In this document: positions 1 through 32,619 of the stretch, piece after piece | Position numbering within the stretch: the first letter of the stretch is position 1 | How the letters are laid out: every line of letters begins with the position of its first letter | Sequence record: PZ179880.1 | Strand: one strand, 5' to 3' | From: a phage | DNA: 64,000 nucleotides | The notes under the pieces: generated by a model | What the model saw: the letters and a program-made list of their open reading frames with translations, nothing else | The model's database searches: none | What the model was told of the DNA's origin: nothing | Made by a program: the position numbers and the translations under genes

Positions 1-359
1 AAGGCACCGGGAAAAAGAGCATTCAAATTAAATTGACGATTCAACAGAGCGTCAATAGAATCACCCAATGCTGTAACAGCTACAAAATTATAATCTTCCT
101 TTAATTTGTTAATTACACACAGGGCATCTTTATACGGAGACAAGTAACGAATAAAATCTGAACGATTGTATTTTTCAATTAACTTGACGCCAAGTTCTTC
201 GTCACAATTAAAGAGTTTACCTGGAGAAATAAATTTCTCATCTTGGATCATTTTTAAAATATGTTCTAATGGAAGATTATATTTCTGAGCAAAATAAGGA
301 AGGCCTGATTGCCAGCTTAAACATACTCCATCAATATCAGTCAAAATAGTTGGCTTCAT
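1..359 (-). CDS. HAD-superfamily hydrolase-like protein, N-terminal part (3' end outside window)
   Basis: Minus-strand frame from ATG at 357-359 running off the window start; N-terminal LTDIDGV resembles HAD motif I; ATGA overlap with upstream stop. Confidence 0.4.
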   Translation of the reverse strand, partial: MKPTILTDIDGVCLSWQSGLPYFAQKYNLPLEHILKMIQDEKFISPGKLFNCDEELGVKLIEKYNRSDFIRYLSPYKDALCVINKLKEDYNFVAVTALGDSIDALLNRQFNLNALFPGA

Positions 360-820
360 AGAGAGTCTCTTAATAGGTTTAACACATCAATAAATTCAGC
401 TTCGGTTAATATTGTATCATCTTTTGTTAGACCACTAGCCATGCTGTGCTTCAAAACTTTTCCTTTCGAGGCTTGTAATGCATCACGAAAGCCCTTGTTT
501 TGGATCGCTGCTTCAAAGTATGCATTTGTGTATAATTCTTTCCACGCTGGAGAGTATCTTGAAAACGGAACTCCAAGCCAGAAGAGGGTCCCACGGTCTT
601 GAGCTCTAGCATAAGACCTTCCAGCTTGTTGGGCGGCAAGCCCGGATAACCCAAATATACGACGTTGTTGTTCAACATTTTTCACCTTACATCCTTGAAG
701 GAATCCTTCGAGACCTCCAAATTGGATACCATCCATAACGAAAGGCCATTGGGCGAAATTGCTTAATGCACATGATGGCCATCTAAAATTGCTTCTTATC
801 TCTAGCTCAGACATTTTCAA
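356..820 (-). CDS. NADAR (YbiA-like) domain protein
   Basis: 154-aa ORF; segment SNFAQWPFVMDGIQFGGLEGFLQGCKV resembles the NADAR/YbiA signature; by-eye assignment. Confidence 0.45.
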   Translation of the reverse strand: MKMSELEIRSNFRWPSCALSNFAQWPFVMDGIQFGGLEGFLQGCKVKNVEQQRRIFGLSGLAAQQAGRSYARAQDRGTLFWLGVPFSRYSPAWKELYTNAYFEAAIQNKGFRDALQASKGKVLKHSMASGLTKDDTILTEAEFIDVLNLLRDSL

Positions 821-1013
821 TACTTATAATTTCAACATCAGCCCAATGACCATAGCAAGGAAGACGAAATTCAACTGGCCAGTTAGGGTCCTTTTCTAAT
901 ATAATAGACTTAACTTGTGGTTCTTCATGTTCATCGGTATACGGACCTTTATACGTTACTTTATATGTGACCTTAATGTACTGAATTCCAAAAATCTTAT
1001 TAATTATATTCAT
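807..1013 (-). CDS. hypothetical protein (68 aa)
   Basis: ORF in tightly packed minus-strand array, overlaps neighbours by a few nt. Confidence 0.4.
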   Translation of the reverse strand: MNIINKIFGIQYIKVTYKVTYKGPYTDEHEEPQVKSIILEKDPNWPVEFRLPCYGHWADVEIISIENV

Positions 1014-1545: not shown

Positions 1546-1900
1546 ATTCGTTAAGAACTACATCAAAGATTGCTTCAAGATGCTCAGGTTTAGCTCTGTT
1601 ACTCAAAATATGACGAATCCAAGTTTTAACTAGAAGCTTACGATTGACGCCATTCCAGCAAGGATGAGTCCCTAAATCACGTTGACGAAAATCATCATCC
1701 AGAGCGATTTTGAAAGAAGAACCTTCTTTCGTGATTGAAACCGTGATGCCATTTTCAAATCGCATATAAACGTAGTTAGGAGTCATATACTGTTCAATTT
1801 CGCATACTGATCCATTTTGATGTTTCCAAAGGCAAATAGTATCAATAGAACCTGCAATACCGTTAGAAACATATTTACGTTCAAAGTTGATGTAGTTCAT
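1535..1900 (-). CDS. hypothetical protein (121 aa)
   Basis: ORF downstream of early promoter at ~1935-1966. Confidence 0.45.
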   Translation of the reverse strand: MNYINFERKYVSNGIAGSIDTICLWKHQNGSVCEIEQYMTPNYVYMRFENGITVSITKEGSSFKIALDDDFRQRDLGTHPCWNGVNRKLLVKTWIRHILSNRAKPEHLEAIFDVVLNEFDI

Positions 1901-1934
1901 TTTTATTCTCCAAGATGTTTAATTGCGGTACAGG

Positions 1935-1966
1935 TATATAATATCATATCCTGTACCAAAGTAAAC
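1935..1966 (-). promoter_or_regulatory. early promoter with stem-loop (PeSL-type)
   Basis: Minus-strand GTTTAC -35, 17-bp spacer, TATTAT; 8-bp inverted repeat GGTACAGG/CCTGTACC spans the -10. Confidence 0.5.
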
Positions 1967-1968
1967 AA

Positions 1969-2301
1969 TTATTTTACTACTTTCCAGTGCTGCATGTCAA
2001 GTTTGCCAACTTTTTTCATCTTCTCAATTAAGCGTTCTGCACGTTGGCGAGCTGTAACATAATACCATTCACCTAATTCATTTTGTTCAATTTTTCCAAC
2101 GATTACTGTATTCAATTCATAAATCCAACCAGTAAAGAAATTATGAACTTGGATTGTAAAGGTGAAATCTGTTCCCATACCTTCTGTTGTTTCTACTTCA
2201 ATAATATCACCTTCAACTGCCATTAAGAACCACATAGTTTCATCATATTTACCATTGAAGCATTTAGTTTTAACTGTAGCGTTCAGATTAATCGTTTTCA
2301 T
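1969..2301 (-). CDS. hypothetical protein (110 aa)
   Basis: ORF downstream of early promoter at ~2322-2358. Confidence 0.45.
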   Translation of the reverse strand: MKTINLNATVKTKCFNGKYDETMWFLMAVEGDIIEVETTEGMGTDFTFTIQVHNFFTGWIYELNTVIVGKIEQNELGEWYYVTARQRAERLIEKMKKVGKLDMQHWKVVK

Positions 2302-2321
2302 TTTATTCTCCTTTGTTTGTG

Positions 2322-2358
2322 TAAGATAATACTATCACAAAGGAACTATACTGTAAAC
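2322..2358 (-). promoter_or_regulatory. early promoter
   Basis: GTTTAC -35 and TAGTAT/TATTAT -10 on minus strand. Confidence 0.45.
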
Positions 2359-2382
2359 AACTTTGTGCAATCTTTGGAAAAT

Positions 2383-2406
2383 AAAAAAGGACTCCCGAAG
2401 GAGTCC
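2383..2406 (-). terminator. intrinsic terminator (UUCG tetraloop hairpin + U-run)
   Basis: mRNA GGACUCC-UUCG-GGAGUCC followed by UUUUUU; identical to 55795-55818. Confidence 0.65.
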
Positions 2407-2411
2407 TCAAC

Positions 2412-2588
2412 TTATGCTTTCTGCTTACCAAAACGAGAAGCATCATCTCGAAGAACCGCACGTGCTCGGCGCATGATCTTCTCAACAGTTTGATTGATAC
2501 GAGAGTTCGACCCACGCTTGTAACCAGCGCGTTTAGAATCACCAACTTTCTTTTCAACTGCTTTCTTTGCTTTAGCTTGTTTTGCCAT
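2412..2588 (-). CDS. small highly basic protein (58 aa from MAKQAK; ORF track extends to 2630)
   Basis: Lys/Arg-rich ORF followed by UUCG-hairpin terminator at 2383-2406. Confidence 0.4.
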   Translation of the reverse strand: MAKQAKAKKAVEKKVGDSKRAGYKRGSNSRINQTVEKIMRRARAVLRDDASRFGKQKA

Positions 2589-2827
2589 TATAAATTCTCT
2601 TTTAAATGAAAATGCAGGACTTATTGGCATTGCCTGCGAAAGCCCTCAAGGGGGTACTTAGGTTTTGAATATTTACCGACAGGATAACCATAAACCTCGT
2701 CAACATTCAAGAGGTACACCGTAAAACTGCCGGGGTCTTAAAACTATAATGATTCGCAAATCATTAATCAGACAGTTCGACGGCTCCTCGATTTTAGCTC
2801 ACACTAAGGCAGTGAATCTCCAATAAA

Positions 2828-3076
2828 TTACTTCAGTGTTACCACAAAGTGACGAACTGCTTTTCGTGCAGCAGAAGCCAGAGGCTTAGCATACTTAAGT
2901 TCATCTTTTTCCTGGAGCTCAGCAGCTAATGCAGTTTGAGCAGGATTCAGATGTTTGAAATAACGCAGGATTTCAAGAGCTTCGGCTTCAACATCAATAG
3001 ATGCGCCATAGTTTTCGTGACCATTATTCCATGCGTTTCGTTGCAGTTCAAGAGCGTGTTGTAATTGTTTAATCAT
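2828..3076 (-). CDS. rIII: lysis-inhibition accessory protein rIII
   Basis: 82 aa, position immediately downstream of gene 31 as in T4. Confidence 0.7.
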   Translation of the reverse strand: MIKQLQHALELQRNAWNNGHENYGASIDVEAEALEILRYFKHLNPAQTALAAELQEKDELKYAKPLASAARKAVRHFVVTLK

Positions 3077-3215
3077 TTAAAAATTCTCGTTAGAGATTAA
3101 AACTCGGTAGTCACGTTCTTCTGAATTTCATCTTCTTTCGACAGATCTCTCAGTTGTAGACTACCACATAGAATTGTTCGGTTAACTTATTATTCCGACA
3201 CCCAATTCATATTAT

Positions 3216-3223
3216 TATTTATA
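3216..3223 (-). promoter_or_regulatory. late promoter-like TATAAATA upstream of rIII
   Basis: Exact TATAAATA on minus strand abutting gene 31 stop. Confidence 0.4.
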
Positions 3224-3559
3224 TCACTTATAAAGACATGGAATAGCTTTATAGTGACAGGTAACGAATTTTTGTTTAATTTCTTTTGGCTGCTTAAGAC
3301 CCAGAGCTACAAAAGGATGCGGAACGTTTCGAATTTGACCAACTGGAAGAGAAGTCAAATCACCAACTTCGCAGAAACCTTCAGGAACATCAGGACCAAC
3401 AGAGTGAATTACACACAGTTCAGGAACTTCACCTTGAACACGTTTACCGATAATAAGTCCTGATTCTGTAACTTCTTCATCACCGGCTTGTGCAGGTTCA
3501 GAAACTAAAATAACATATTCACCGACAGCACGAATTGGTAGCTGTTGTACTTCAGACAT
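3224..3559 (-). CDS. 31: co-chaperonin gp31 (GroES-like) for capsid folding
   Basis: 111 aa; sequence matches remembered T4 gp31; synteny cd-31-rIII. Confidence 0.85.
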
Positions 3560-3589
3560 CGTTTTTCCTTTTTGTTAACAGATGAATTA

Positions 3590-3616
3590 ATAATAACAAA
3601 TAATTCTTAAAGCATT
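3590..3616 (-). promoter_or_regulatory. MotA-dependent middle promoter for gene 31
   Basis: Minus-strand AAATGCTTTA, 12-bp spacer, TATTAT; ~30 nt before ATG. Confidence 0.5.
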
Positions 3617-3924
3617 TATTTACCAATAAATTGAAGCAAATGCTCAACTTTCATACCATTAACGGAAATCAATTTGTCAATAGAAAAACCTCGCCATGCA
3701 CCAAGCTCAACATCAAATACTGGAATCATATCAGTAGATTCTTTCCGAGTAGATTCAGTCAATTTACCAGTTTGCATGGTTGGCATAAAGTCAGCATCAC
3801 GAGTACCTTTCATAGTACGAATAGTACCATCAGACTTTTCAAAAACCACGTTTGAAATACCCATGGACAATTTAGTTTTCAAAATTTCACGAATTGCTAC
3901 TTTTTGTTCAGTCGTCAGTTTCAT
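3616..3924 (-). CDS. hypothetical protein (31.1-like position)
   Basis: 102-aa ORF between cd and 31. Confidence 0.45.
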   Translation of the reverse strand: MKLTTEQKVAIREILKTKLSMGISNVVFEKSDGTIRTMKGTRDADFMPTMQTGKLTESTRKESTDMIPVFDVELGAWRGFSIDKLISVNGMKVEHLLQFIGK

Positions 3925-4161
3925 TTATTTACCTATCACAGTTTTAATATGAGTTGTTCCACGTTCTTTAAGAGTGGAAAGCAATTTTTGGCATTTTTCT
4001 AAATCAGATTTCCAACTATGCGGTCTATCAATACAAACCCAGTTTGACTTATAATACTGCCTCCATTTAGAGAAAAAATACTTCTTATACTCTACAACAA
4101 ATGAAATGTTCTCGTTGGAATAAGAACTAATTGCTGTAAGTTGTACCAAACGAAATTTCAT
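3925..4161 (-). CDS. hypothetical protein (31.2-like position)
   Basis: 78-aa ORF, abuts cd stop. Confidence 0.45.
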   Translation of the reverse strand: MKFRLVQLTAISSYSNENISFVVEYKKYFFSKWRQYYKSNWVCIDRPHSWKSDLEKCQKLLSTLKERGTTHIKTVIGK

Positions 4162-4742
4162 TATTCACCACAGAATTCGTTGATATTTTCCCAGTTTAAC
4201 TTATTCAAGTTTTTCTTAGGAACATTAAACACTTCAATACCCGCATTTCGCAGAATATCATCCCAGCCAGGTTTATTTTTATCGTATGTTTCGCAATAAA
4301 CCAGCTTTTTAATTCCAGATTGAGCTATCGCTTTTGCACAATCTGGGCAAGGAGAAAGTGTTACATACATAGTAGCACCTTCAATTGAAGAACCATTTCG
4401 TGCAGCAAACAAAATCGCATTTAGTTCAGCATGAATTTCATTTTTAGACGACCATTCAGAGTGAGCGCTACGGTGTTCTTTCGCCAAGACAAAACGATCA
4501 GTTGAACCAAATGATACACATTCGGGCTTATGACCTTGAATGATAGTATGTTTAGGCTTATTCAGCAACCAACCTTGCTCGGCAGCATAATCACAGCAGT
4601 TCACACCACCTGCAGGTGAACCATTATATCCAGTAGAAATAATACGTCCATTCTTTTCAATTACTGCTCCTACTTTCCAGGAGCAACATTTTGATTCTTG
4701 TGATACTAAATATGCAATTTGAAGTACTGTACTCGCTTTCAT
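4161..4742 (-). CDS. cd: dCMP deaminase
   Basis: 193 aa; zinc-binding deaminase motifs HAELNAI and SPCPDCAKAI. Confidence 0.9.
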   Translation of the reverse strand: MKASTVLQIAYLVSQESKCCSWKVGAVIEKNGRIISTGYNGSPAGGVNCCDYAAEQGWLLNKPKHTIIQGHKPECVSFGSTDRFVLAKEHRSAHSEWSSKNEIHAELNAILFAARNGSSIEGATMYVTLSPCPDCAKAIAQSGIKKLVYCETYDKNKPGWDDILRNAGIEVFNVPKKNLNKLNWENINEFCGE

Positions 4743-22445: not shown

Positions 22446-25400
22446 ATGGCCGAGATTAAAAGAAAGTTCAGAGCAGAAGACGGTCTGGACGCAGGTGGCG
22501 ATAAAATAATCAATGTAGCTTTAGCTGATCGTACCGTAGGAACTGACGGTGTTAACGTTGATTACTTAATTCAAGAAAACACAGTTCAACAATATGATCC
22601 AACTCGTGGATATTTAAAAGATTTTGTAATCATTTATAATAATCGTTTTTGGGCAGCAACGGATAATATTCCAAAACCTGCTGGAAGTTTTAATAGAATT
22701 CGTTGGAAAGCATTACGTACTGATGCCGTATATACAACCGTATCATCTGGACCATATCAATTAAAATCCGGAGAAGCAATTTCAGTAGATACATCAGTTG
22801 GTAATGACATTGAGTTTAATTTACCGCCTTCTCCGCTTGATGGAGAAACCGTAATAATTCAAGATATTGGTGGAAAACCTGGTATAAATCAGGTTAAAAT
22901 AAATTCTTCAAATCAGAGTATTGTTAATTTTAGAGGTGAACAAGTACGTTCAGTTCTAATGACTCATCCAAAGTCACAGATGATATTCATTTTTAATAAT
23001 CGTTTGTGGCAAATGTATGTTGCTGATTATAGCAGAGAAGCTGCGATTGTTACTCCATCGACTGCATATCAAGCACAATCTAATGATTTTATCGTGCGTA
23101 GATTTACTTCCGCTGCGCCGATTAATATTAAACTTCCGAGATTTGCTAATCATGGCGATATTATTAATTTCGTTGATTTAGATAAATTAAATCCACTTTA
23201 TCATACAATTGTCACGACATATGATGAAACAACTTCAGTACAAGAAGTTGGAACTCATTCTATTGAAGGCCGTACATCGATTGACGGTTTCTTGATGTTT
23301 GATGATAATGAAAAATTATGGAGATTGTTTGACGGGGATAGTAAAGCGCGTTTACGCATTATAACAACTAATTCTAATATTCGTCCAAATGAAGAAGTTA
23401 TGGTATTTGGAGCGAATAACGGAACAACCCAAACAATTGAACTTCAGCTTCCAACTGATATTTCCATTGGTGATACTGTTAAAATTTCCATGAATTACAT
23501 GAGAAAAGGACAAACAGTTAAAATCAAAGCTGCTGGTGAAGATAAAATTGCTTCTTCAGTTCAATTGCTGCAATTCCCAAAACGCTCAGAATATCCACCT
23601 GAAGCTGAATGGGTGACTGTCCAAGAATTAGTTTTCAATGGTGAAACTAATTATGTTCCGGTTTTACAACTTGCTTATATAGAAGATTCTGACGGAAAAT
23701 ACTGGGTTGTACAACAAAACGTTCCAACGGTTGAAAGAGTCGATTCTTTAAATAATTCTACTAGAGCAAGATTAGGCGTAATTGCTTTAGCTACACAAGC
23801 TCAAGCAAATGCTGATTTAGAAAATTCTCCGCAAAAAGAATTAGCAATTACACCAGAAACATTAGCTAACCGTACTGCTACAGAAACTCGTAGAGGTATC
23901 GCAAGAATAGCAACTACTGCTCAAGTAAATCAGAACACTACATTCTCTTTTGCTGATGACCTTATCATCACTCCTAAAAAGCTGAATGAAAGAACTGCTA
24001 CAGAAACTCGTAGAGGCGTTGCTGAAATTGCCACGCAACAAGAAACTAATACAGGTACTGATGATACTACAATCATCACTCCTAAAAAGCTTCAAGCTCG
24101 TCAAGGTTCTGAATCATTATCTGGTATTGTAACCTTTGTATCTACTGCAGGAGCTACTCCAGCTTCTAGTCGTGAATTAAATGGTACAAATGTTTATAAT
24201 AAAAACACTAATAATTTAGTTGTTTCGCCTAAAGCTTTGGATCAGTATAAAGCTACTCCAACGCAACAAGGTGCAGTAATTTTAGCAGTTGAAAGTGAAG
24301 TAATTGCTGGACAAAGCCAAGAAGGATGGGCAAATGCGGTTGTAACGCCAGAAACGTTACATAAAAAGACATCAACTGATGCAAGAATTGGTTTAATTGA
24401 AATTGCTACGCAAAGTGAAGTTAATACAGGAACTGATTATACTCGTGCAGTCACTCCTAAAACTTTAAATGACCGTAAAGCAACTGAAAGTTTAAGTGGT
24501 ATAGCTGAAATTGCTACACAAGTTGAATTCGACGCAGGCGTCGACGATACTCGTATCTCTACACCATTAAAAATTAAAACCAGATTTAATAGTACTGATC
24601 GTACTTCTGTTGTTGCTCTATCTGGATTAGTTGAATCAGGAACTCTCTGGGACCATTATACCCTTAATATTCTTGAAGCAAATGAGACACAGCGTGGTAC
24701 ACTTCGTGTGGCTACGCAAGTTGAAGCTGCTGCAGGAACATTGGATAATGTTCTAATAACTCCTAAAAAGCTTTTAGGTACTAAATCTACTGAAGCGCAG
24801 GAAGGCGTTATTAAAGTTGCAACTCGGTCTGAAACTGTAGCTGGAACGTCAGCAAATACTGCTGTATCTCCAAAAAATTTAAAATGGATTGTGCAGAGTG
24901 AACCTACTTGGGCAGCTACTACTGCGATAAGAGGTTTTGTTAAAACCTCATCTGGTTCAATTACGTTCGTTGGTAATGATACAGCTGGTTCTACGCAGGA
25001 CTTAGAACTATATGAGAAAAATAACTATGCAGTATCACCATATGAATTAAACCGCGTATTAGCAAATTATTTGCCGTTAAAAGCAAAAGCTGTAGATAGT
25101 AATTTATTAGATGGTTTAGATTCACTCCAGTTCATTCGTAGGGATATTGCGCAGACGGTTAATGGTTCACTAACCTTAACACAGCAAACGAATCTGAGTG
25201 CCCCTCTTGTATCATCTAGTACTGCTACATTTGGTGGATCAGTTTCAGCAAATAGTACATTAACTATTTCTAATACTGGAACGGCAACTCGTCTGATTTT
25301 TGAGAAAGGACCTCAAACTGGAACAAACCCGGCTCAAACGATGACAGTCAGAGTGTGGGGAAATCAATTTAGTGGGGAGTCAGACACAACACGTTCTACT

Positions 25401-26315
25401 GTATTTGAAGTTAGTGATGAAACTTCTAGTCATTTTTATTCTCAGCGTAATAAAGCTGGTAATATAACATTTAATATCAACGGTACAGTAACACCGATAA
25501 ATGTGAATGCTTCAGGAACATTGAATGCGAATGGCGTTGCAACATTTGGTAATTCAGTCACTGCAACTGGTGAAATTATTTCTCGAAGCGCAAATGCTTT
25601 CCGTGCTATTAATGGAAATTACGGTTTCATTATTCGTAATGACGGGTCAGTAACGAATTTTATGCTTACTGCATCAGGCAATCAAACTGGTGGATTTAAT
25701 GGATTGCGTCCATTGTCCATTAATAATCAATCTGGGCAGGTCACAATTGGTGAAAGCTTGATCATTGCTAAAGGTGCTACTATAAATTCAGGTGGTTTAA
25801 CTGTTAACTCGAGAATTCGTTCTCAAGGTGTTAAAACATCTGATTTATATACCCGCGCTCCGACATCTGATACCGTAGGATTCTGGTCAATCGATATTAA
25901 TGATTCAGCCACTTATAACCAGTTCCCGGGTTATTTTAAAATGGTTGAAAAAACTAATGAAGTTACTGGACTTCCATACTTAGAACGTGGCGAAGAAGTT
26001 AAATCTCCTGGTACATTGACTCAGTTTGGTAACACACTTGATTCACTTTACCAAGATTGGATTACTTATCCAACGACTCCAGAAGCACGTACCACTCGCT
26101 GGACACGTACATGGCAAAAAACTAAAAACTCTTGGTCAAGTTTTGTTCAGGTATTTGACGGAGGTAACCCTCCTCAACCTTCAGATATAGGAGCGATCCC
26201 ATCTGATAATGGAATAATAGGTAATCTTACTATTCGTGATTTCTTACGAATTGGTAATGTTCGCATTATTCCTGACCCAGTGAATAAAACTGTTAAATTT
26301 GAATGGGTTGAATAA
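22446..26315 (+). CDS. 34: long tail fibre proximal subunit gp34
   Basis: 1289 aa; repeated tail-fibre motifs (ITPKKL..TATETRRG..IAT); late promoter TATAAATA upstream. Confidence 0.95.
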   Translation: MAEIKRKFRAEDGLDAGGDKIINVALADRTVGTDGVNVDYLIQENTVQQYDPTRGYLKDFVIIYNNRFWAATDNIPKPAGSFNRIRWKALRTDAVYTTVSSGPYQLKSGEAISVDTSVGNDIEFNLPPSPLDGETVIIQDIGGKPGINQVKINSSNQSIVNFRGEQVRSVLMTHPKSQMIFIFNNRLWQMYVADYSREAAIVTPSTAYQAQSNDFIVRRFTSAAPINIKLPRFANHGDIINFVDLDKLNPLYHTIVTTYDETTSVQEVGTHSIEGRTSIDGFLMFDDNEKLWRLFDGDSKARLRIITTNSNIRPNEEVMVFGANNGTTQTIELQLPTDISIGDTVKISMNYMRKGQTVKIKAAGEDKIASSVQLLQFPKRSEYPPEAEWVTVQELVFNGETNYVPVLQLAYIEDSDGKYWVVQQNVPTVERVDSLNNSTRARLGVIALATQAQANADLENSPQKELAITPETLANRTATETRRGIARIATTAQVNQNTTFSFADDLIITPKKLNERTATETRRGVAEIATQQETNTGTDDTTIITPKKLQARQGSESLSGIVTFVSTAGATPASSRELNGTNVYNKNTNNLVVSPKALDQYKATPTQQGAVILAVESEVIAGQSQEGWANAVVTPETLHKKTSTDARIGLIEIATQSEVNTGTDYTRAVTPKTLNDRKATESLSGIAEIATQVEFDAGVDDTRISTPLKIKTRFNSTDRTSVVALSGLVESGTLWDHYTLNILEANETQRGTLRVATQVEAAAGTLDNVLITPKKLLGTKSTEAQEGVIKVATRSETVAGTSANTAVSPKNLKWIVQSEPTWAATTAIRGFVKTSSGSITFVGNDTAGSTQDLELYEKNNYAVSPYELNRVLANYLPLKAKAVDSNLLDGLDSLQFIRRDIAQTVNGSLTLTQQTNLSAPLVSSSTATFGGSVSANSTLTISNTGTATRLIFEKGPQTGTNPAQTMTVRVWGNQFSGESDTTRSTVFEVSDETSSHFYSQRNKAGNITFNINGTVTPINVNASGTLNANGVATFGNSVTATGEIISRSANAFRAINGNYGFIIRNDGSVTNFMLTASGNQTGGFNGLRPLSINNQSGQVTIGESLIIAKGATINSGGLTVNSRIRSQGVKTSDLYTRAPTSDTVGFWSIDINDSATYNQFPGYFKMVEKTNEVTGLPYLERGEEVKSPGTLTQFGNTLDSLYQDWITYPTTPEARTTRWTRTWQKTKNSWSSFVQVFDGGNPPQPSDIGAIPSDNGIIGNLTIRDFLRIGNVRIIPDPVNKTVKFEWVE
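23860..24110 (+). repeat. ~120-bp tandem repeat units within gene 34
   Basis: actgctacagaaactcgtagagg at ~23875 and ~23995; atcatcactcctaaaaagct at ~23960 and ~24075. Confidence 0.6.
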
Positions 26316-26323
26316 GAGGTATT

Positions 26324-27439
26324 ATGGAAAAATTTATGGCAGAGTTTGGACAAGGATATGTCCAAACGCCATTTTTATCGGAAAGCAATTCAGTAAGATA
26401 TAAAATAAGCATAGCGGGCTCTTGCCCGCTTTCTACTGCAGGGCCATATGTTAAATTTCAGGATAATCCCGTTGGAAATCAAACATTTAGTGCAGGTCTT
26501 CATTTAAGAGTTTTTGACCCTTCTACGGGAGCATTAGTTGATAGTAAGTCATATGCTTTTTCTGCTTCAAACAATACAACATCTGCCGCTTTTGTCAGTT
26601 TTATGAATTCTTTGTCAAACAATAGACTTGTTGCTATATTAACTAGCGGAAAGGTTAATTTTCCTCCTGAAGTGGTATCTTGGTTAAGGGGAGCAGGAAC
26701 TTCAGTTTTTCCATCAGATTCAGTATTGTCAAGATTTGACGTATCATATGCTGCTTTTTATACTTCTTCTAAAAGAGCTATTGCATTAGAGCATGTTAAA
26801 CTAAGTAATAGAAAAAGCACAGATGATTATCAAACTATTTTAGATGTTGTATTTGATAGTTTAGAAGACGTCGGAGCTACGGGATTTCCTAAAAGAACAT
26901 ATGAAAGTGTCGAGCAATTTATGTCAGCGGTTGGTGGAACTAACAACGAAATTGCGCGATTGCCAACTTCAGCTGCTATAAGTAAACTATCTGATTATAA
27001 TTTAATTCCTGGTGATGTTCTTTATCTTAAAGCACAGTTATATGCTGATGCTGATTTACTTGATCTTGGAACTACAAATATATCTATCCGTTTTTATAAT
27101 GCATCAAATGGATATATTTCTTCAACACAGGCTGAGTTTACTGGGCAAGCTGGGTCATGGGAATTAAAGGAAGATTATGTAGTTGTTCCTGAAAATGCAG
27201 TCGGATTTACTATATATGCGCAGAGAACTGCTCAAGCTGGTCAAGGCGGAATGAGGAATTTAAGCTTTTCTGAAGTATCAAGAAATGGCGGCATTTCAAA
27301 ACCTGCCGAATTTGGCGTCAACGGTATTCGTGTTAATTATGTCTGTGAATCGGCTTCACCTCCAGATATAATGGTACTTCCTACACAAGCCTCTTCTAAA
27401 ACTGGCAAAGTGTTTGGGCAAGAATTTAGAGAAGTTTAA
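26324..27439 (+). CDS. 35: long tail fibre hinge/connector gp35
   Basis: 371 aa; follows gene 34 by 8 nt; terminator downstream. Confidence 0.9.
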   Translation: MEKFMAEFGQGYVQTPFLSESNSVRYKISIAGSCPLSTAGPYVKFQDNPVGNQTFSAGLHLRVFDPSTGALVDSKSYAFSASNNTTSAAFVSFMNSLSNNRLVAILTSGKVNFPPEVVSWLRGAGTSVFPSDSVLSRFDVSYAAFYTSSKRAIALEHVKLSNRKSTDDYQTILDVVFDSLEDVGATGFPKRTYESVEQFMSAVGGTNNEIARLPTSAAISKLSDYNLIPGDVLYLKAQLYADADLLDLGTTNISIRFYNASNGYISSTQAEFTGQAGSWELKEDYVVVPENAVGFTIYAQRTAQAGQGGMRNLSFSEVSRNGGISKPAEFGVNGIRVNYVCESASPPDIMVLPTQASSKTGKVFGQEFREV

Positions 27440-27501: not shown

Positions 27502-28152
27502 ATGGCTGATTTAAAAGTAGGTTCAACTGTGGGTGGATCTGTCATTTGGCATCAAGGAAATTTTCCATTGAATTCAGCCGGTGACGATGTACTCTACAAA
27601 TCATTTAAAATATATTCAGAATATAATAAACCACAGGCAGCTGATAACGATTTCGTTTCTAAAGCTAATGGTGGTACTTACACCGGTCCAATTACTATTA
27701 ATTACGGGGTAAATAGTTATCTTCAATTAAGTAATAATGAAACCCCTATCCGAATTCGTTCTGGTGGCGGCACCGGTAATACTCTTGTAATCGGTGGCTC
27801 TTCTGGTGGTATTAGTTTTAGACCTGCAGGTAGTGAAATCACTACTGGACAAATTACTATTACGCCAGAAGGTTTGACAACATTCACTAAAGCTGTAAAG
27901 GCTCCATCTGTAACTGTTACATCTACTCCTTCCGCAGCATCAGATGCTACTCGTAAAGATTATGTTGATGGAGCAATAAATACTGTTACAGCAAATGCAA
28001 ACTCTAGAGTGTTACGATCTGGTGACACCATGACAGGAAATTTAACTGCGCCAAACCTTTTTTCACAGAATCCTGCATCTCAACCTTCACACGTTCCACG
28101 ATTTGACCAAATCGTAATTAAGGATTCTGTTCAAGATTTCGGCTATTATTAA
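27502..28152 (+). CDS. 36: long tail fibre distal connector gp36
   Basis: 216 aa; late promoter TATAAATA at 27471-27478. Confidence 0.9.
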   Translation: MADLKVGSTVGGSVIWHQGNFPLNSAGDDVLYKSFKIYSEYNKPQAADNDFVSKANGGTYTGPITINYGVNSYLQLSNNETPIRIRSGGGTGNTLVIGGSSGGISFRPAGSEITTGQITITPEGLTTFTKAVKAPSVTVTSTPSAASDATRKDYVDGAINTVTANANSRVLRSGDTMTGNLTAPNLFSQNPASQPSHVPRFDQIVIKDSVQDFGYY

Positions 28153-28160
28153 GAGGACTT

Positions 28161-31112
28161 ATGGCTACTTTAAAACAAATACAATTTAAAAGAAGCAAAA
28201 CCGCAGGTCAACTTCCTGCTGCTTCAGTATTAGCCGAAGGTGAATTGGCTATTAATTTAAAAGATAAAACAATTTTCACAAAAGATGACTCAGGCAATGT
28301 TATAGAATTAGGTTTAAAATATGGAGGAACAATTGATGGTTCTTTAACTGTTAATGGAAATATAATTGGAAATTTAACAGGTAACGCTGCAACTGCAACG
28401 AAATTAAAAACAGCACGAAAAATTAATGGTATATCCTTTGATGGGTCAAAAGATATCACGCTAACTCCATCTGACATAAATGTCAATAGCACAACATTTA
28501 TAAAAAATAACGGCGAATTACCTGTTGATGCTAATTTAGATGAGTACGGGCCTGTTGAAGAATATCTTGGAGTTTGGTCGAAAGCAACTTCAACCAACGC
28601 TCAACCAGCAAATAAATTTCCAGAAGAAAATGCTGTAGGTGTGCTAGAAGTATTTGTAGCCGGTCAATTTGCTGGTACTCAGAGATATACAACTAGATAC
28701 GGAAATGTTTATATTCGTTCCTTGACTGCTACATGGAACGGAGTAAATGGTCCGTGGAGTGTGTGGCGAAATATTCAATCCGGTACTCGTCCACTGTCAA
28801 CAACAATTGATCTTAATGATCTAGGAGGCGCTGAACACTTTGGTTTGTGGCGAAATAGTTCAAATTCCATTGCTACCTTTGACAGAAATTTCCCAGAAGA
28901 GGGGTCGTCAGCTAAAGGTCTTTTGGAAGTATATGAAGGGGGAAGCTATTCTCGTACACAAAGATATACAACCATGTTTGGTGTTGTTTATACTCGCTGT
29001 CTTACTGCTGCGTGGGATGCTTCTGCGCCTAAATGGGGACCGTGGCAACAAGTCGGTAATGTCACACCAGCGACTTTTTATGATGGAGATCTGAATGATT
29101 TTAAAACTCCTGGGTTATATAATATTTTAGGCACTGATGCCGTTATTAATTGTCCTACAGGCGAAGGTTTACCAGCCGTTATTGTTGGTTTGCTGGAAGT
29201 TAAACAGCGTGCTTCTGGCGGTGCTATTTTCCAAAAATTTACTACTGCCGGAACAGGTGCAACTACTCGCGATCGTATTTTTGAGCGTGCATATACTGGT
29301 GGTGCGTGGGGTGCATGGAACGAAGTATATACATCTTATTCTCTGCCAATTACTTTGGGTATGGGTGGCATTAAAGCTCAATTAGCGGAGTTAGATTGGC
29401 AAACCTTTGATTTTGTCCCTGGTAGTATGTTTAGCGTTCCTTTGAATAAAATAAAGAACATGCCAGCAAATATGAATTGGGGGACGATTGATGGAAACTT
29501 GGTTATGTTTTCTGTCGGTCCTAGCGAGCATACTGGCACAGGGCGTACTGTTCAGGTTTGGCGTGGTACTGTATCCCAGACAAACTACCGTTATTTTGTC
29601 GTTCGTGTATTCGGTAATTCAGGAAATAGAACTTGCACAGTTCGTCGTGTTGTTCTTGAAGACGGATCACATACTTGGACTGCTCAACAAAACTTTAGAG
29701 GATTGTTGAATATCACTGCTGTTGTTAATCTTGGCGCTAATCAGAAAATTTCACTTGCTCCAGGAGCATATATTCAAGCCCCTGCTAGCGGTTCTGGTTC
29801 TAATACTTACGCAAATCAGAATACTACTATTGCGCCATTATATCAGGCCATTGACGATTCAAATAAAAACCAGTTTGCTCCTATTGTAAAACAGAAAAAC
29901 ACTGTAACAAATATTACTATGGCTTCTGGTATGGATATTGCTAGTTCAGAATATCGTATCATTGCTCAAGGTGATTTATCCGCTACTGGAACTACAGCTA
30001 ATGAATTAGCTACATGGCGTTTCTTGCCGTCTGGCCGATTCATGTCACAAAGCCGAGTTTATGCTGGCGCAGCATTCTTGAACACTGATGGTAACATTGC
30101 TGGTTCAATCTGGAAGAAATACAACAATGCAACCAACTTAGACGCTGCTTTGAATACTCGCGTAGGTAAAAGCGGTGATACGATGACAGGTCGGTTAACA
30201 ATCAATGCACCTAATGATGTTATTGTATTATCAACAACTGCTAGTAATTCTTTGTATATTCGCGGTGATATAGACGGGACTGGTAACTGGTATATTGGTA
30301 GGGGTGGTGGTGATGATAATGGATTAGCGTTCCATAGTTATGCTAATAATGCTGGTGTATACATTACAAACAATGGTGAGATTGCGTTAAACCCGCAAAA
30401 TACCGCAATGGTTAACGTTAACCGTGACCGTGTACGCATTAACGGTTCTGGATGGATTGCTAGACAACCGGGTGATTGGGGCAACCAATGGCGAGTAGAA
30501 GCTCCATTATTCGTTGATCATGGTTATGTTTCACCGGATTGTTATTATCCAATTATTAAAGGAAGAAGTGTAATCACCAATCAAGGATATAGCACCGCTG
30601 TTGACTTTGGTATGCGTCGTATTCCATCACAGTGGGGGCAAGCAATCATTCGTGTCGGATCCACGGAGGCTTCTCCTGATGCTGGACACCCACAAGCTGT
30701 GTTTGAATTCCATCATGATGGATTCTTTTATACACCAGGAAATGGTAGCTTTAGCGATGTGTATATTCGTTCTGACTCCCGTCTCAAGATTAATAAAGAA
30801 GAATTAGAATATGGAGCAGTCGAAAAAGTTTGCCGACTGAAAGTTTATATTTACGATAAAGTTAAGTCTATTAAAGACCGTAGTGTTATTAAACGTGAAG
30901 TTGGTATTATTGCTCAGGACCTTGAAAAGGAATTACCGGAAGCTGTATCTAAGGTTGAAGTTGATGGATCTGATGTTCTGACAATTTCTAACTCTGCTGT
31001 GAATGCTCTTTTAATTAAGGCTATTCAGGAAATGAATGAAGAAATTAAAGAATTGAAAACGCCTCTCTTTACTAAAATTGCTCGCAAAATTAGTAAATAT
31101 TTTAAATTCTAA
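28161..31112 (+). CDS. 37: long tail fibre distal subunit gp37 with C-terminal intramolecular-chaperone (S74-like) domain
   Basis: 983 aa; three internal ~60-aa repeats; C-terminus SDSRLKINKEELEY... typical of auto-cleaving chaperone domains. Confidence 0.9.
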   Translation: MATLKQIQFKRSKTAGQLPAASVLAEGELAINLKDKTIFTKDDSGNVIELGLKYGGTIDGSLTVNGNIIGNLTGNAATATKLKTARKINGISFDGSKDITLTPSDINVNSTTFIKNNGELPVDANLDEYGPVEEYLGVWSKATSTNAQPANKFPEENAVGVLEVFVAGQFAGTQRYTTRYGNVYIRSLTATWNGVNGPWSVWRNIQSGTRPLSTTIDLNDLGGAEHFGLWRNSSNSIATFDRNFPEEGSSAKGLLEVYEGGSYSRTQRYTTMFGVVYTRCLTAAWDASAPKWGPWQQVGNVTPATFYDGDLNDFKTPGLYNILGTDAVINCPTGEGLPAVIVGLLEVKQRASGGAIFQKFTTAGTGATTRDRIFERAYTGGAWGAWNEVYTSYSLPITLGMGGIKAQLAELDWQTFDFVPGSMFSVPLNKIKNMPANMNWGTIDGNLVMFSVGPSEHTGTGRTVQVWRGTVSQTNYRYFVVRVFGNSGNRTCTVRRVVLEDGSHTWTAQQNFRGLLNITAVVNLGANQKISLAPGAYIQAPASGSGSNTYANQNTTIAPLYQAIDDSNKNQFAPIVKQKNTVTNITMASGMDIASSEYRIIAQGDLSATGTTANELATWRFLPSGRFMSQSRVYAGAAFLNTDGNIAGSIWKKYNNATNLDAALNTRVGKSGDTMTGRLTINAPNDVIVLSTTASNSLYIRGDIDGTGNWYIGRGGGDDNGLAFHSYANNAGVYITNNGEIALNPQNTAMVNVNRDRVRINGSGWIARQPGDWGNQWRVEAPLFVDHGYVSPDCYYPIIKGRSVITNQGYSTAVDFGMRRIPSQWGQAIIRVGSTEASPDAGHPQAVFEFHHDGFFYTPGNGSFSDVYIRSDSRLKINKEELEYGAVEKVCRLKVYIYDKVKSIKDRSVIKREVGIIAQDLEKELPEAVSKVEVDGSDVLTISNSAVNALLIKAIQEMNEEIKELKTPLFTKIARKISKYFKF

Positions 31113-31149: not shown

Positions 31150-31932
31150 ATGGCAGTAGTTGGAGTTCCTGGCTGGATTGGAAGTTCAGCCGTAAATGAA
31201 ACGGGACAGCGCTGGATGAGTCAAGCGGCTGGTCAATTAAGATTGGGTGTTCCTTGCTGGATGAGTCAATTTGCAGGTCGCTCACGAGAAATTATTCACA
31301 CGCTTGGAGCAGACCATAACTTCAATGGTCAATGGTTCCGAGATAGATGTTTTGAGGCAGGTAGTGCACCTATAGTGTTTAATATCACTGGAGATTTAGT
31401 ATCATATTCTAAAGATGTTCCTTTATTCTTCATGTACGGAGATACACCGAATGAATATGTTCAGTTGAACATACATGGTGTAACGATGTATGGCCGTGGC
31501 GGGAATGGCGGTAGCAATAGTCCTGGCTCAGCTGGGGGTCATTGTATTCAAAATGATATTGGTGGGAGACTAAGAATTAATAATGGCGGAGCTATTGCTG
31601 GCGGCGGTGGCGGTGGCGGCGGCGGGTATTATTCTCCTTTTTCACAAATGAGATTGACCTTTGGCGGTGGCGGCGGTCGTCCGTTTGGCGCACCGGGCGG
31701 ATCTATTGATATGCAATCAGGAGCAACTGCTGGTACTATTTCTTCGCCAGGCGCAGGGTCTGTGAACGGTATCTACAACGGCGGGTCTGGTGGTGAAGTT
31801 GGCTCCGCAGGAGGTAGATGTAATATTCGTGGTCAAGGATATGAATACGATGGCGGAGCTGCTGGTTATGCCGTCATAGGGTCTACACCGACATGGCAAA
31901 ACGTTGGAGCAATATATGGTCCAAGAGTATAA
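31150..31932 (+). CDS. 38: T2-type tail-fibre adhesin gp38 (glycine-rich motifs)
   Basis: 260 aa; poly-Gly blocks [10 protein letters not shown] and [13 protein letters not shown] separated by variable segments. Confidence 0.85.
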
Positions 31933-31962: not shown

Positions 31963-32619
31963 ATGGCAGCACCTAGAATATCATTTTCGCCCTCTGATAT
32001 TCTGTTTGGTGTTCTAGATCGCTTGTTCAAAGATAATGCTACCGGGAAAGTTCTTGCTTCCCGGGTAGCTGTCGTAATTCTTTTGTTTATAATGGCGATT
32101 GTTTGGTATAGGGGAGATAGTTTCTTTGAGTACTATAAGCAATCAAAGTATGAAACATACAGTGAAATTATTGAAAAGGAAAGAAATGCACGCTTTGAAT
32201 CTGTCGCCCTGGAACAACTCCAGATAGTTCATATATCATCTGAGGCAGACTTTAGTGCGGTGTATTCTTTCCGCCCTAAAAACTTAAACTATTTTGTTGA
32301 TATTATAGCATATGAAGGAAAATTACCTTCAACAATAAGCGAAAAATCACTTGGAGGATATCCTGTTGATAAAACTATGGATGAATATACAGTTCATTTA
32401 AATGGACGTCATTATTATTCCGACTCAAAATTTGCTTTTTTACCAACTAAAAAGCCTACTCCCGAAATAAATTACATGTACAGTTGTCCATATTTCAATT
32501 TGGATAATATCTATGCTGGAACAATAACCATGTACTGGTATAGAAATGATCATATAAGTAATGACCGCCTTGAATCAATATGTTCTCAGGCGGCCAGAAT
32601 ATTAGGAAGGGCTAAATAA
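31963..32619 (+). CDS. t: holin T
   Basis: 218 aa; single N-terminal TM (VAVVILLFIMAIVW) plus large periplasmic domain. Confidence 0.9.
   Translation: MAAPRISFSPSDILFGVLDRLFKDNATGKVLASRVAVVILLFIMAIVWYRGDSFFEYYKQSKYETYSEIIEKERNARFESVALEQLQIVHISSEADFSAVYSFRPKNLNYFVDIIAYEGKLPSTISEKSLGGYPVDKTMDEYTVHLNGRHYYSDSKFAFLPTKKPTPEINYMYSCPYFNLDNIYAGTITMYWYRNDHISNDRLESICSQAARILGRAK

Follow-up and report, generated by a model that had tools for sequence, protein, structure and literature searches.

Three tandem repeats in the long tail fibre protein gp37 of a T4-like phage are likely pyocin knob-type domains

Gene 37 of the phage sequence PZ179880.1 lies within the 64,000-nucleotide stretch of DNA that was analysed here (the window), and part of its product shows one pattern of residues three times in succession. 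Which kind of domain is repeated, how long its unit is, and whether it lies near the receptor are the questions raised by this locus; the original prediction had proposed units of about 60 aa, an old internal triplication and, possibly, a receptor-proximal module. The phage is T4-like, with the gene order gp34-gp35-gp36-gp37-gp38-holin t in the ORF list, and the gp37 DNA is 90-96% identical to annotated Tequatrovirus "long tail fiber distal subunit" genes. The first 66 aa are 79% identical to those of T4 gp37, many PHROG tail-fibre families match aa 54-116, and the Pfam matches in the protein are Peptidase_S74 and gp37_trimer; the structure of S16 gp37 (PDB 6f45) aligns with aa 865-969. The gene order, the conserved gp36-binding N-terminus, and the S74 end followed by a glycine-rich gp38 gene identify the protein as a T2/S16-type gp37 (Table 1). 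Removal of the chaperone domain after trimerisation is expected at the sequence DVYIR^SDSRLKI, a cleavage motif of the type reported for fPS phages (PMC7917993), and the mature protein is predicted to end at this point, about aa 870. The receptor-binding end of the fibre is gp38 at the gp37 tip: the next ORF encodes a 260-aa product with poly-Gly tracts, and the neighbouring genes at this position in RB9 and ECML-134 are annotated as "tail fiber adhesin" and "host specificity".

Table 1. Features of the gene 37 region, in window coordinates
Feature	Position	Strand	Evidence or remark
Gene 37, long tail fibre distal subunit, 983 aa	28161..31112	+	T2/S16 type with C-terminal intramolecular chaperone
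Conserved tail-fibre motif AATATKLKTARKINGISFDG, aa 76-95	28386..28445	+	Regex and BLAST; directly upstream of the knob cassette
Putative knob unit R1, aa 119-211 (HMM envelope 121-210)	28515..28793	+	Smith-Waterman, phmmer, HMM
Putative knob unit R2, aa 212-304 (HMM envelope 212-302)	28794..29072	+	Smith-Waterman, phmmer, HMM
Putative knob unit R3, diverged copy, aa 305-397 (HMM envelope 306-395)	29073..29351	+	hhalign, cross-profile HMM, AF2, Foldseek
Next domain, aa 398-~515, apparently co-inherited with the knobs	29352..29705	+	43-46% identical to P2-like gpH right after the third knob
C-terminal intramolecular chaperone, Peptidase_S74, aa 871-983	30771..31109	+	Pfam PF13884, E = 6e-10, aa 871-929
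Gene 38, glycine-rich T2-type adhesin capping the gp37 tip	31150..31932	+	ORF translation with poly-Gly motifs

The three segments that had first drawn attention were all found in the ORF, at aa 149-202, 242-295 and 335-386 (nt 28605-28766, 28884-29045 and 29163-29318, all within 28590-29340). They are about 54 aa each and start exactly 93 aa apart, so the unit length had been underestimated: these strings are the conserved C-terminal half of a unit of about 93 aa, and gp37 contains three such units head to tail with an exact period of 93 aa (279 nt). An N-terminal part of the form D-L-N-x-[LF]...G-[ILV]-[WY]...N-x-P is common to all three, as is the order of the motifs (DLN..., G-Y/W, N-P, G-LEV, Q-x-[YF]-TT, R, W..W). 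R1 and R2 are ~36-41% identical, and R3 is ~20% identical to either. The DNA has diverged, as had been noted: Tandem Repeats Finder gave no 279-nt period, and a repeat search returned only short chance matches. An HMM scan of the 260 six-frame ORFs of at least 60 aa in the window found no more knob copies; in the same scan the C-terminus of gp34 gave a non-significant match (E = 0.3 to 1).

The Smith-Waterman score of R1 against R2 is 161, compared with 27.7 +/- 5.5 for shuffled sequences (z = 24; none of 500 shuffles as high), and phmmer relates the two units with an i-E of ~1e-16. The chance that the whole similarity is an artefact of low complexity or compositional bias, with no repeat at all, is practically nil, as no point in its support was found and it is already refuted by these scores and the cross-profile scores given below, by orthologous three-unit arrays in hundreds of phage genomes, and by a knob family of 1568 cluster representatives at E <= 1e-3. 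Of the 150 best-scoring representatives, 142 carry two or more copies, three in tandem being the most frequent number, and the spacing has a median of 95 aa.

The status of R3 requires separate consideration. Its pairwise similarity is weak both to R1 (z = 2.2, with 21 of 500 shuffles reaching the score) and to R2 (z = 3.4; 3 of 500), so self-alignment against shuffled controls, which had been suggested as a possible refutation, upholds the R1-R2 pair, while R3 stands out from its controls at the level of profiles. These pairwise values would fit a protein with two true repeats, the third segment being alike by chance or through convergence of beta-rich sequences, and the same can be said of the hhalign comparison of R1/R2 orthologues with R3 orthologues (E = 3e-5), where the probability is just 73% over 40 columns, and of the Foldseek search with R3 alone, where E-values are 0.05-0.8. 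However, the E-value of that hhalign comparison speaks for R3 as a copy; the R1/R2 HMM scores 9.9 bits on R3, and the R3 HMM scores 10.4 bits on R1 and 11.2 bits on R2, in each case above all 2000 composition-preserving shuffles; the units follow one another at exactly 93 aa and keep the conserved motifs in the common order; and the predicted strand pattern of R3 matches that of R1 and R2. Moreover, a search with R3 modelled alone by AF2 (pLDDT 76.5, pTM 0.70) leads to the knob proteins already found with R1 and R2, namely the phi812 RBP, the R1/R2 pyocin fibres and phi11 gp45, at TM ~0.55 and Foldseek probabilities of 0.9-1.0 (6cl5, probability 0.97, TMq 0.54; 6ct8, TMq 0.55), and at the sequence level the R3 HMM picks up the knob of the phi812 RBP (E = 0.038). 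Only two true repeats are therefore very improbable, and R3 is treated below as the third copy.

A repeated fold, which had also been proposed as a check, is seen in the AF2 monomer: the same order of five strands occurs three times, with mean pLDDT of 10-residue blocks of 64-89, mostly 70-89. In R1 the strands are at aa 137-141, 160-165, 173-178, 183-188 and 203-206 (block means 70-89). In a Foldseek search of the PDB with the three-unit model, the R1/R2 pyocin fibres came out on top (6cl5_A, E = 1.9e-6; 6cl6_A, E = 5e-6), followed by the RBPs of phi812, P68, phi11 and 80alpha, each with tandem knobs, the TM-scores being low, 0.2-0.3, for a multi-domain monomer. The profile of R1/R2 gave marginal matches in the PDB to the Pa193 fibre gp47 (9b45, E = 5.7e-4), 6cl5 (E = 0.006) and 6ct8 (E = 0.05). 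In a phmmer search of the PDB with whole gp37, T7 gp17 and S16 gp37 matched C-terminal parts only and the repeats were missed, so profiles of the units were required. The knob region has no Pfam or NCBIfam model, and PHROGs assigned gp37 only to the generic "tail collar fiber" and "long tail fiber" families; the nearest database homologues, 51-69% identical, bear the NCBI name "pyocin knob domain-containing protein". With a predicted five-strand unit of ~93 aa, structural likeness to 6CL5/6CL6 and tandem copies in a fibre, gp37 aa 119-397 are likely three tandem pyocin knob-type tail-fibre domains, which would form structural beads in the trimeric shaft. The original prediction did not recognise this known and named domain type.

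For the pyocin fibre, the architecture of such knobs, with buried sheets, has been described, and a role in the folding of trimeric fibres has been proposed (Buth et al., 2018; PMC6116203). By analogy, each ~93-aa unit of gp37 would fold into an antiparallel beta-sheet of five or six strands that bears loops on its surface; the conserved G-[LV]-LEV, QRYTT, R and W..W in the predicted strands would set the core while the loops vary. In the gp37 homotrimer, the sheets of each unit would pack on the three-fold axis into one globular bead, a geometry taken over from the pyocin fibre, and the triplet would then make a row of three beads in the upper part of the distal half-fibre shaft, directly after the gp36-binding N-terminus. 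The units were probably born by ancient duplication. Their most likely function is structural: trimer registration, folding nuclei, and the length and stiffness of the shaft. One observation that speaks against a purely structural role is that R2 is far more variable than R1 and R3, as is Knob2 in the pyocin fibre.

The N-terminus of gp37 meets gp36 at the knee of the fibre, and its C-terminus bears the gp38 adhesin (PMC3004832; PMC7917993). For this reason the knobs, located in the N-terminal third of gp37 close to the gp36 junction and ~470 residues before the gp38-bearing tip, belong to the upper distal half-fibre, and the suggestion of a receptor-proximal module does not hold. This position also weighs against a secondary glycan-binding site in the triplet, for example for the LPS core, which we regard as unlikely. 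Such a site would be in line with the properties of Knob2, the most variable surface of the pyocin fibre and one proposed for surface binding, and with the sialic acid binding of a knob-like domain of K1F (PMC6116203). Similarly, R2 is the most variable unit in the T-even orthologues (74.6% vs ~87%, with 53 of 93 columns varying), and the cassette phages in the collection all infect enterobacteria (E. coli, Shigella, Yersinia, Salmonella), hosts with related LPS cores. However, dN/dS is ~0.2 in all units, and the divergence of R2 comes with a doubled dS (1.17 vs 0.5), a pattern more suggestive of mosaic ancestry than of diversifying selection. In addition, the cassette is paired with three distal ends, namely the T2-type gp38 adhesin, the T4-type gp38 chaperone (Lv5cm) and the P2-like gpH tips, and likeness in gp37 was no guide to receptor specificity among the fPS phages (PMC7917993). 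Quite improbable, too, is a more specific version, in which the knobs, especially the variable R2, would be a second low-affinity carbohydrate zone for LPS core or O-antigen sugars on the upper shin, or a whisker-docking surface in the retracted state. If a carbohydrate zone of this kind were real, it could pre-orient the fibre or aid reversible "walking" on cells before gp38 engages the porin, and a cassette passing between T-even and P2-like phages would carry host-surface specificity with it and be more than a spacer.

Returning to the knobs as shaft beads, selection on them was estimated by a crude Nei-Gojobori calculation with 10 T-even orthologues. The mean pairwise identity is 87.8% in R1, 74.6% in R2 and 86.6% in R3, no unit changes in length among the ten sequences, and dN/dS is 0.16-0.20 in each unit, which indicates purifying selection on all three. 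Positive selection on the knobs was also considered, and this crude estimate, 0.16-0.20 everywhere, shows no hint of it.

The triplet does not travel alone. The three knobs and the next ~120 aa are ~50% identical to gpH tail fibres of P2-like phages, and the cassette was found in 228 phage records, ~190 of them T-even-like and ~37 Peduovirus-like. Judging from these sequences, the three knobs and the ~120-aa domain appear to be one old cassette exchanged horizontally between T-even gp37 and P2-like gpH. As the three-unit array is present in P2-like gpH at 50-60% identity, the triplication would predate the exchange between the phage groups; together with one predicted five-strand fold occurring three times and the lack of a DNA repeat, this bears out the idea of an old internal triplication. 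For the domain at aa 398-515 a PDB profile search gave nothing credible, and its AF2 pLDDT is below 50. A fourth knob was considered at this place, where the sequence looks knob-like by eye (LDWQTF..PGS...NMP...) and AF2 predicts several strands; it was rejected as lacking support, with a probability of 0.3% in hhalign against the knob profile.

The significance of these assignments beyond annotation is small: gp37 aa 119-397, blank in Pfam and NCBIfam, can be described as three likely pyocin-knob beads. The clean domain boundaries (aa 119, 212, 305 and 398) may be useful for chimeric fibres and expression constructs, and the cassette is a further example of mosaicism in tail fibres, here between virulent and temperate phages of enterobacteria, the latter represented by P2-like prophage fibres.

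The closest known systems include Knob1 and Knob2 of the Pseudomonas aeruginosa R1/R2 pyocin fibres (6CL5, 6CL6; PMC6116203; "pyocin knob domain" in NCBI/CDD), which likewise are tandem units of ~85-93 aa in the trimeric fibre of a contractile tail, each with a five- or six-stranded antiparallel sheet and loops, and which supplied the top Foldseek matches and the marginal profile match, to Knob2. In contrast to the two pyocin knobs, gp37 has three, at an identity of only ~17-20%. They occupy the N-terminal third of a subunit of 983 aa with a chaperone domain at its end and gp38 as a separate adhesin, whereas the pyocin knobs are ~100 A from the lectin-like foot of the same fibre. Tandem knob-like domains are also present in Staphylococcus RBPs (phi11 gp45, 5EFV; 80alpha, 6V8I; phi812, 9EUF; P68, 6IAB). 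Unlike gp37, these belong to siphovirus, podovirus and Twort-like baseplates of phages with Gram-positive hosts, are 12-24% identical and have another domain context.

The cassette recurs, with its three knobs and ~120-aa domain in unchanged order, in the gpH of P2-like phages (Peduovirus L-413C, 11W, phage 899) and of E. coli prophages. Identity to gp37 is 50% over aa 105-517 in L-413C and up to 60-68% per unit in 11W. The gpH cassette spans aa ~241-655 and comes after a P2 tail-collar N-terminus; next in gpH are the motif AATATKLKTARKI (aa ~641-664) and a different receptor-binding C-terminus, which goes with a gpG assembly protein. The motif shared by the two proteins is upstream of the cassette in gp37 and downstream of it in gpH. 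T4 gp37 (NP_049863) resembles the gp37 of the window in gene position, role in the distal half-fibre, N-terminus and a shared segment at aa 485-648, but it ends in a needle tip without the chaperone domain and gp38 adhesin, and none of three HMMs detected the knob cassette in it. The literature consulted on phages L-413C, fD1 and fPS deals with the gp37/gp38 context and contains nothing on these repeats.

At the DNA level, gene 37 is 95.9% identical to that of Escherichia phage Paracelsus (Bas36). As far as its main text goes, the RBPseg atlas (PMC12143355) does not explicitly state that Bas36 gp37 has three knobs; it covers gp37-like fibres of Straboviridae that terminate in Peptidase_S74 and lists "D7 = Pyocin knob" as a mobile pseudo-domain in six tail-fibre classes. 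The knob triplet belongs to this known type and introduces no new kind of element or mechanism; it is real but ordinary, a common component of phage tail fibres that has been catalogued before.

The distal subunit of the long tail fibre (gp37) contains a real and ancient three-fold tandem domain repeat, the units of which (R1, R2 and R3) are listed in the table with the surrounding genes. The three strings quoted in the original prediction were found at aa 149-202, 242-295 and 335-386 (nt 28605-28766, 28884-29045 and 29163-29318), and, as they start exactly 93 aa apart, the unit limits were set at this spacing; the unit size, first given as ~60 aa, is thus ~93 aa, the strings being its conserved C-terminal half. 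R1 and R2 align over their full length (Smith-Waterman score 161 vs 27.7 +/- 5.5 for shuffles, z = 24, 0/500; phmmer i-E ~1e-16), while R3 is much more diverged, with pairwise Smith-Waterman z of only 2.2 and 3.4 vs R1 and R2. Orthologous units were therefore compared as profiles: units from 31 database homologues were aligned separately for R1/R2 (alignment A1) and R3 (alignment A2). The hhalign comparison of A1 with A2 gave E = 3e-5 (probability 73%), covering the G-LEV...QRYTT...R...W..W half. The A1 HMM scored R3 at 9.9 bits, and the A2 HMM scored R1 and R2 at 10.4 and 11.2 bits, each value being higher than those of all 2000 composition-preserving shuffles. In the joint alignment, all three units share the motif order D-L-N-x-[LF], G-[ILV]-[WY], N-x-P, G-[ILV]-[LV]-E-[VI], Q-x-[YF]-T-T, R, W-x-x-W. 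Hence the old internal triplication seen in the raw sequence is upheld, with the unit size and string extent corrected: the repeat exceeds shuffled controls, directly for R1-R2 and via profiles for R3 (0/2000), and none is detectable at the DNA level, where divergence had been noted.

Coordinates of the long-tail-fibre genes and of features within gp37
Feature	Nucleotides	gp37 residues	Strand	Remarks
gp34	22446-26315		+	ORF, 1289 aa
gp35	26324-27439		+	ORF
gp36	27502-28152		+	ORF
gp37	28161-31112		+	ORF, 983 aa
gp37 N-terminus, upstream flank	28161-28514			G+C 32-33%
Motif AATATKLKTARKINGISFDG	28386-28445	76-95		upstream of the cassette
R1		119-211	+	93-aa spacing
R2		212-304	+	93-aa spacing
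R3		305-397	+	93-aa spacing
R1+R2+R3	28515-29351			three-unit block
Domain after R3	29352-29705	398-~515		~120 aa
Cassette + next domain	28515-29795			G+C 41-45%
gp37_trimer		690-739		Pfam
Predicted autocleavage site	30756-30791	~866-877		DVYIRSDSRLKI (DVYIR^SDSRLKI)
Peptidase_S74		871-929		Pfam, C-terminal
Chaperone domain, downstream flank	30771-31112			G+C 32-33%
gp38	31150-31932		+	ORF, glycine-rich
holin t	31963-32619		+	ORF

The window is a segment of a T-even (Tequatrovirus-like) genome with a G+C content of 35%, and its plus-strand ORFs form the classical long-tail-fibre block. At the DNA level, gp37 shares 90-96% identity with genes annotated "long tail fiber distal subunit" in many T4-like phages of Escherichia, Shigella and Yersinia; KEP10 and Paracelsus/Bas36 come closest (95.9%). 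Pfam recognized only the gp37_trimer and Peptidase_S74 chaperone domains in the protein, and the NCBIfam search of gp37 gave no match. Since the C-terminal Peptidase_S74 domain is present, this gp37 is of the T2/S16 type, in which the chaperone is removed by cleavage and gp38 is the adhesin capping the tip (PMC7917993). The predicted autocleavage site, within which the Peptidase_S74 match begins, matches the site proposed for Yersinia fPS phages, DVYIR^SDGRLKI (PMC7917993).

In the databases, the units most resemble tail fibres from P2-like prophages of E. coli (51-69% identity); NCBI gives several of these proteins the name "pyocin knob domain-containing protein". Sequence searches with the R1/R2 profile found gp47, the tail fibre of Pa193 (9b45), at E = 5.7e-4 and the Knob2 domain in the fibre of R1 pyocin at E = 0.006; with the R3 profile they found the phi812 receptor-binding protein (RBP) at E = 0.038. 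R3 modelled alone (pLDDT 76.5, pTM 0.70) gave structure matches, with weak E-values throughout, to the phi812 RBP (probability 1.0, TM 0.55), 6cl5 (probability 0.97, TM 0.54), and 6ct8 and 5efv (TM 0.55-0.56), the same set that the three-unit model had retrieved, and also to T4 gp34 (4uxg). From the homologue names, profiles and model taken together, we conclude that R1, R2 and R3 are probable pyocin-knob-type domains. The ~120-aa domain after R3 always travels with the three knobs; a fourth knob there was rejected, as comparison with the knob profile detected no relation, no PDB sequence matched the domain, and its AF2 model is of low confidence. A knob-profile scan of the window ORFs found the domain in none besides gp37; the C-terminal region of gp34 (aa ~1202-1242) gave a weak, non-significant match (whole-protein E = 0.3). 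T4 gp34, a reported structural neighbour of pyocin knobs (Buth et al., PMC6116203), likewise gave only a weak, non-significant match to the knob profiles (E = 0.004 in a database of six proteins).

When a profile built from the three types of unit (A5) was searched against a library of 1.84 billion proteins, 1568 cluster representatives were retrieved at E <= 1e-3. Among the best 150 of these, one to six knob copies were found in 8, 49, 57, 26, 4 and 6 proteins, respectively, with a median start-to-start spacing of 95 aa. Within this known family, the best-scoring members thus most often have three knobs in tandem, and the triple repeat of gp37 is a common arrangement of an already known type of domain. 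BFVD matches included tail fibres from phages of both Gram-negative and Gram-positive hosts, and the RBPseg atlas, which includes Paracelsus/Bas36, already counts the "Pyocin knob" among its mobile pseudo-domains, with occurrences in six tail-fibre classes (PMC12143355). The top family match, P0032 (1300 aa, from the representative library), has two separate triple-knob sets (aa 217-483 and 720-987; six copies in total), so the triplet can itself duplicate as a block.

About ten globular domains make up the stiff rod of the distal half-fibre; gp36 binds the gp37 N-terminus at the knee, and the C-terminus is the receptor-binding end (PMC3004832). The knobs (aa 119-397) are therefore part of the upper shin, and some 470 residues separate them from the predicted cleavage site, where gp38 docks, so that the proposed receptor-proximal module lies in fact in the upper shaft. 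Among ten T-even orthologues, the three-knob block has no indels and a dN/dS of 0.16-0.20 in each unit, giving no evidence of positive selection on the knobs; R2 is more diverged (mean identity 74.6% vs ~87% for the other units), with proportionally higher dS. Buth et al. argued that trimeric fibres fold with the help of knob domains, which have double hydrophobic cores (PMC6116203). Because of the position away from the tip, the orthologue data and this folding argument, we rank first a probable role as structural bead and trimerisation element. Accessory glycan binding is possible as a less likely alternative, as the same authors considered that knob domains may bind saccharides, citing the K1F beta-prism and the variable Knob2 (PMC6116203).

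The motif AATATKLKTARKINGISFDG lies upstream of the cassette (R1+R2+R3) in gp37 and downstream of it (aa ~641-664) in gpH, the tail fibre of P2-like phages, with L-413C having it at aa ~645-664. The two types of fibre have the modules in permuted order, a typical case of tail-fibre mosaicism; therefore AATATKLKTARKINGISFDG may serve as a recombination linker. Mosaicism of this kind has reportedly been noted since Haggard-Ljungquist et al. in 1992. The cassette with its next domain is richer in G+C than both flanks (see table) and than the window as a whole (35%), and the homologous gpH segment has 47-50%, which suggests a mosaic origin by old import from a higher-G+C source and is consistent with import into the T-even lineage, the direction of which we infer.

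By tblastn, the three-unit block was found in 228 phage records: ~190 T-even-like phages (77-98% identity), ~37 records with less than 60% identity, almost all of them from Peduovirus or P2-like phages, and a single-unit fibre of one Pantoea siphovirus. The cassette is also present (78-91% identity) in G2248 and G2494, whose taxonomy line reads Krischvirus, and is thus not limited to Tequatrovirus among Straboviridae. In gpH of phages L-413C, 11W and 899, three knobs occupy aa ~241-516; the domain that comes next shares 43-46% identity with aa 398-~520 of gp37. T4 gp37, unlike that of the window, lacks the cassette entirely. In Salmonella phage Lv5cm, gp37 (1647-4433) carries the three-knob cassette (59-92% identity per unit), but the next gene (at 4538) encodes a T4-type gp38 "tail fiber assembly protein" rather than a T2-type adhesin; the cassette, independent of the fibre-tip type, is therefore combined with distal ends of at least three kinds.
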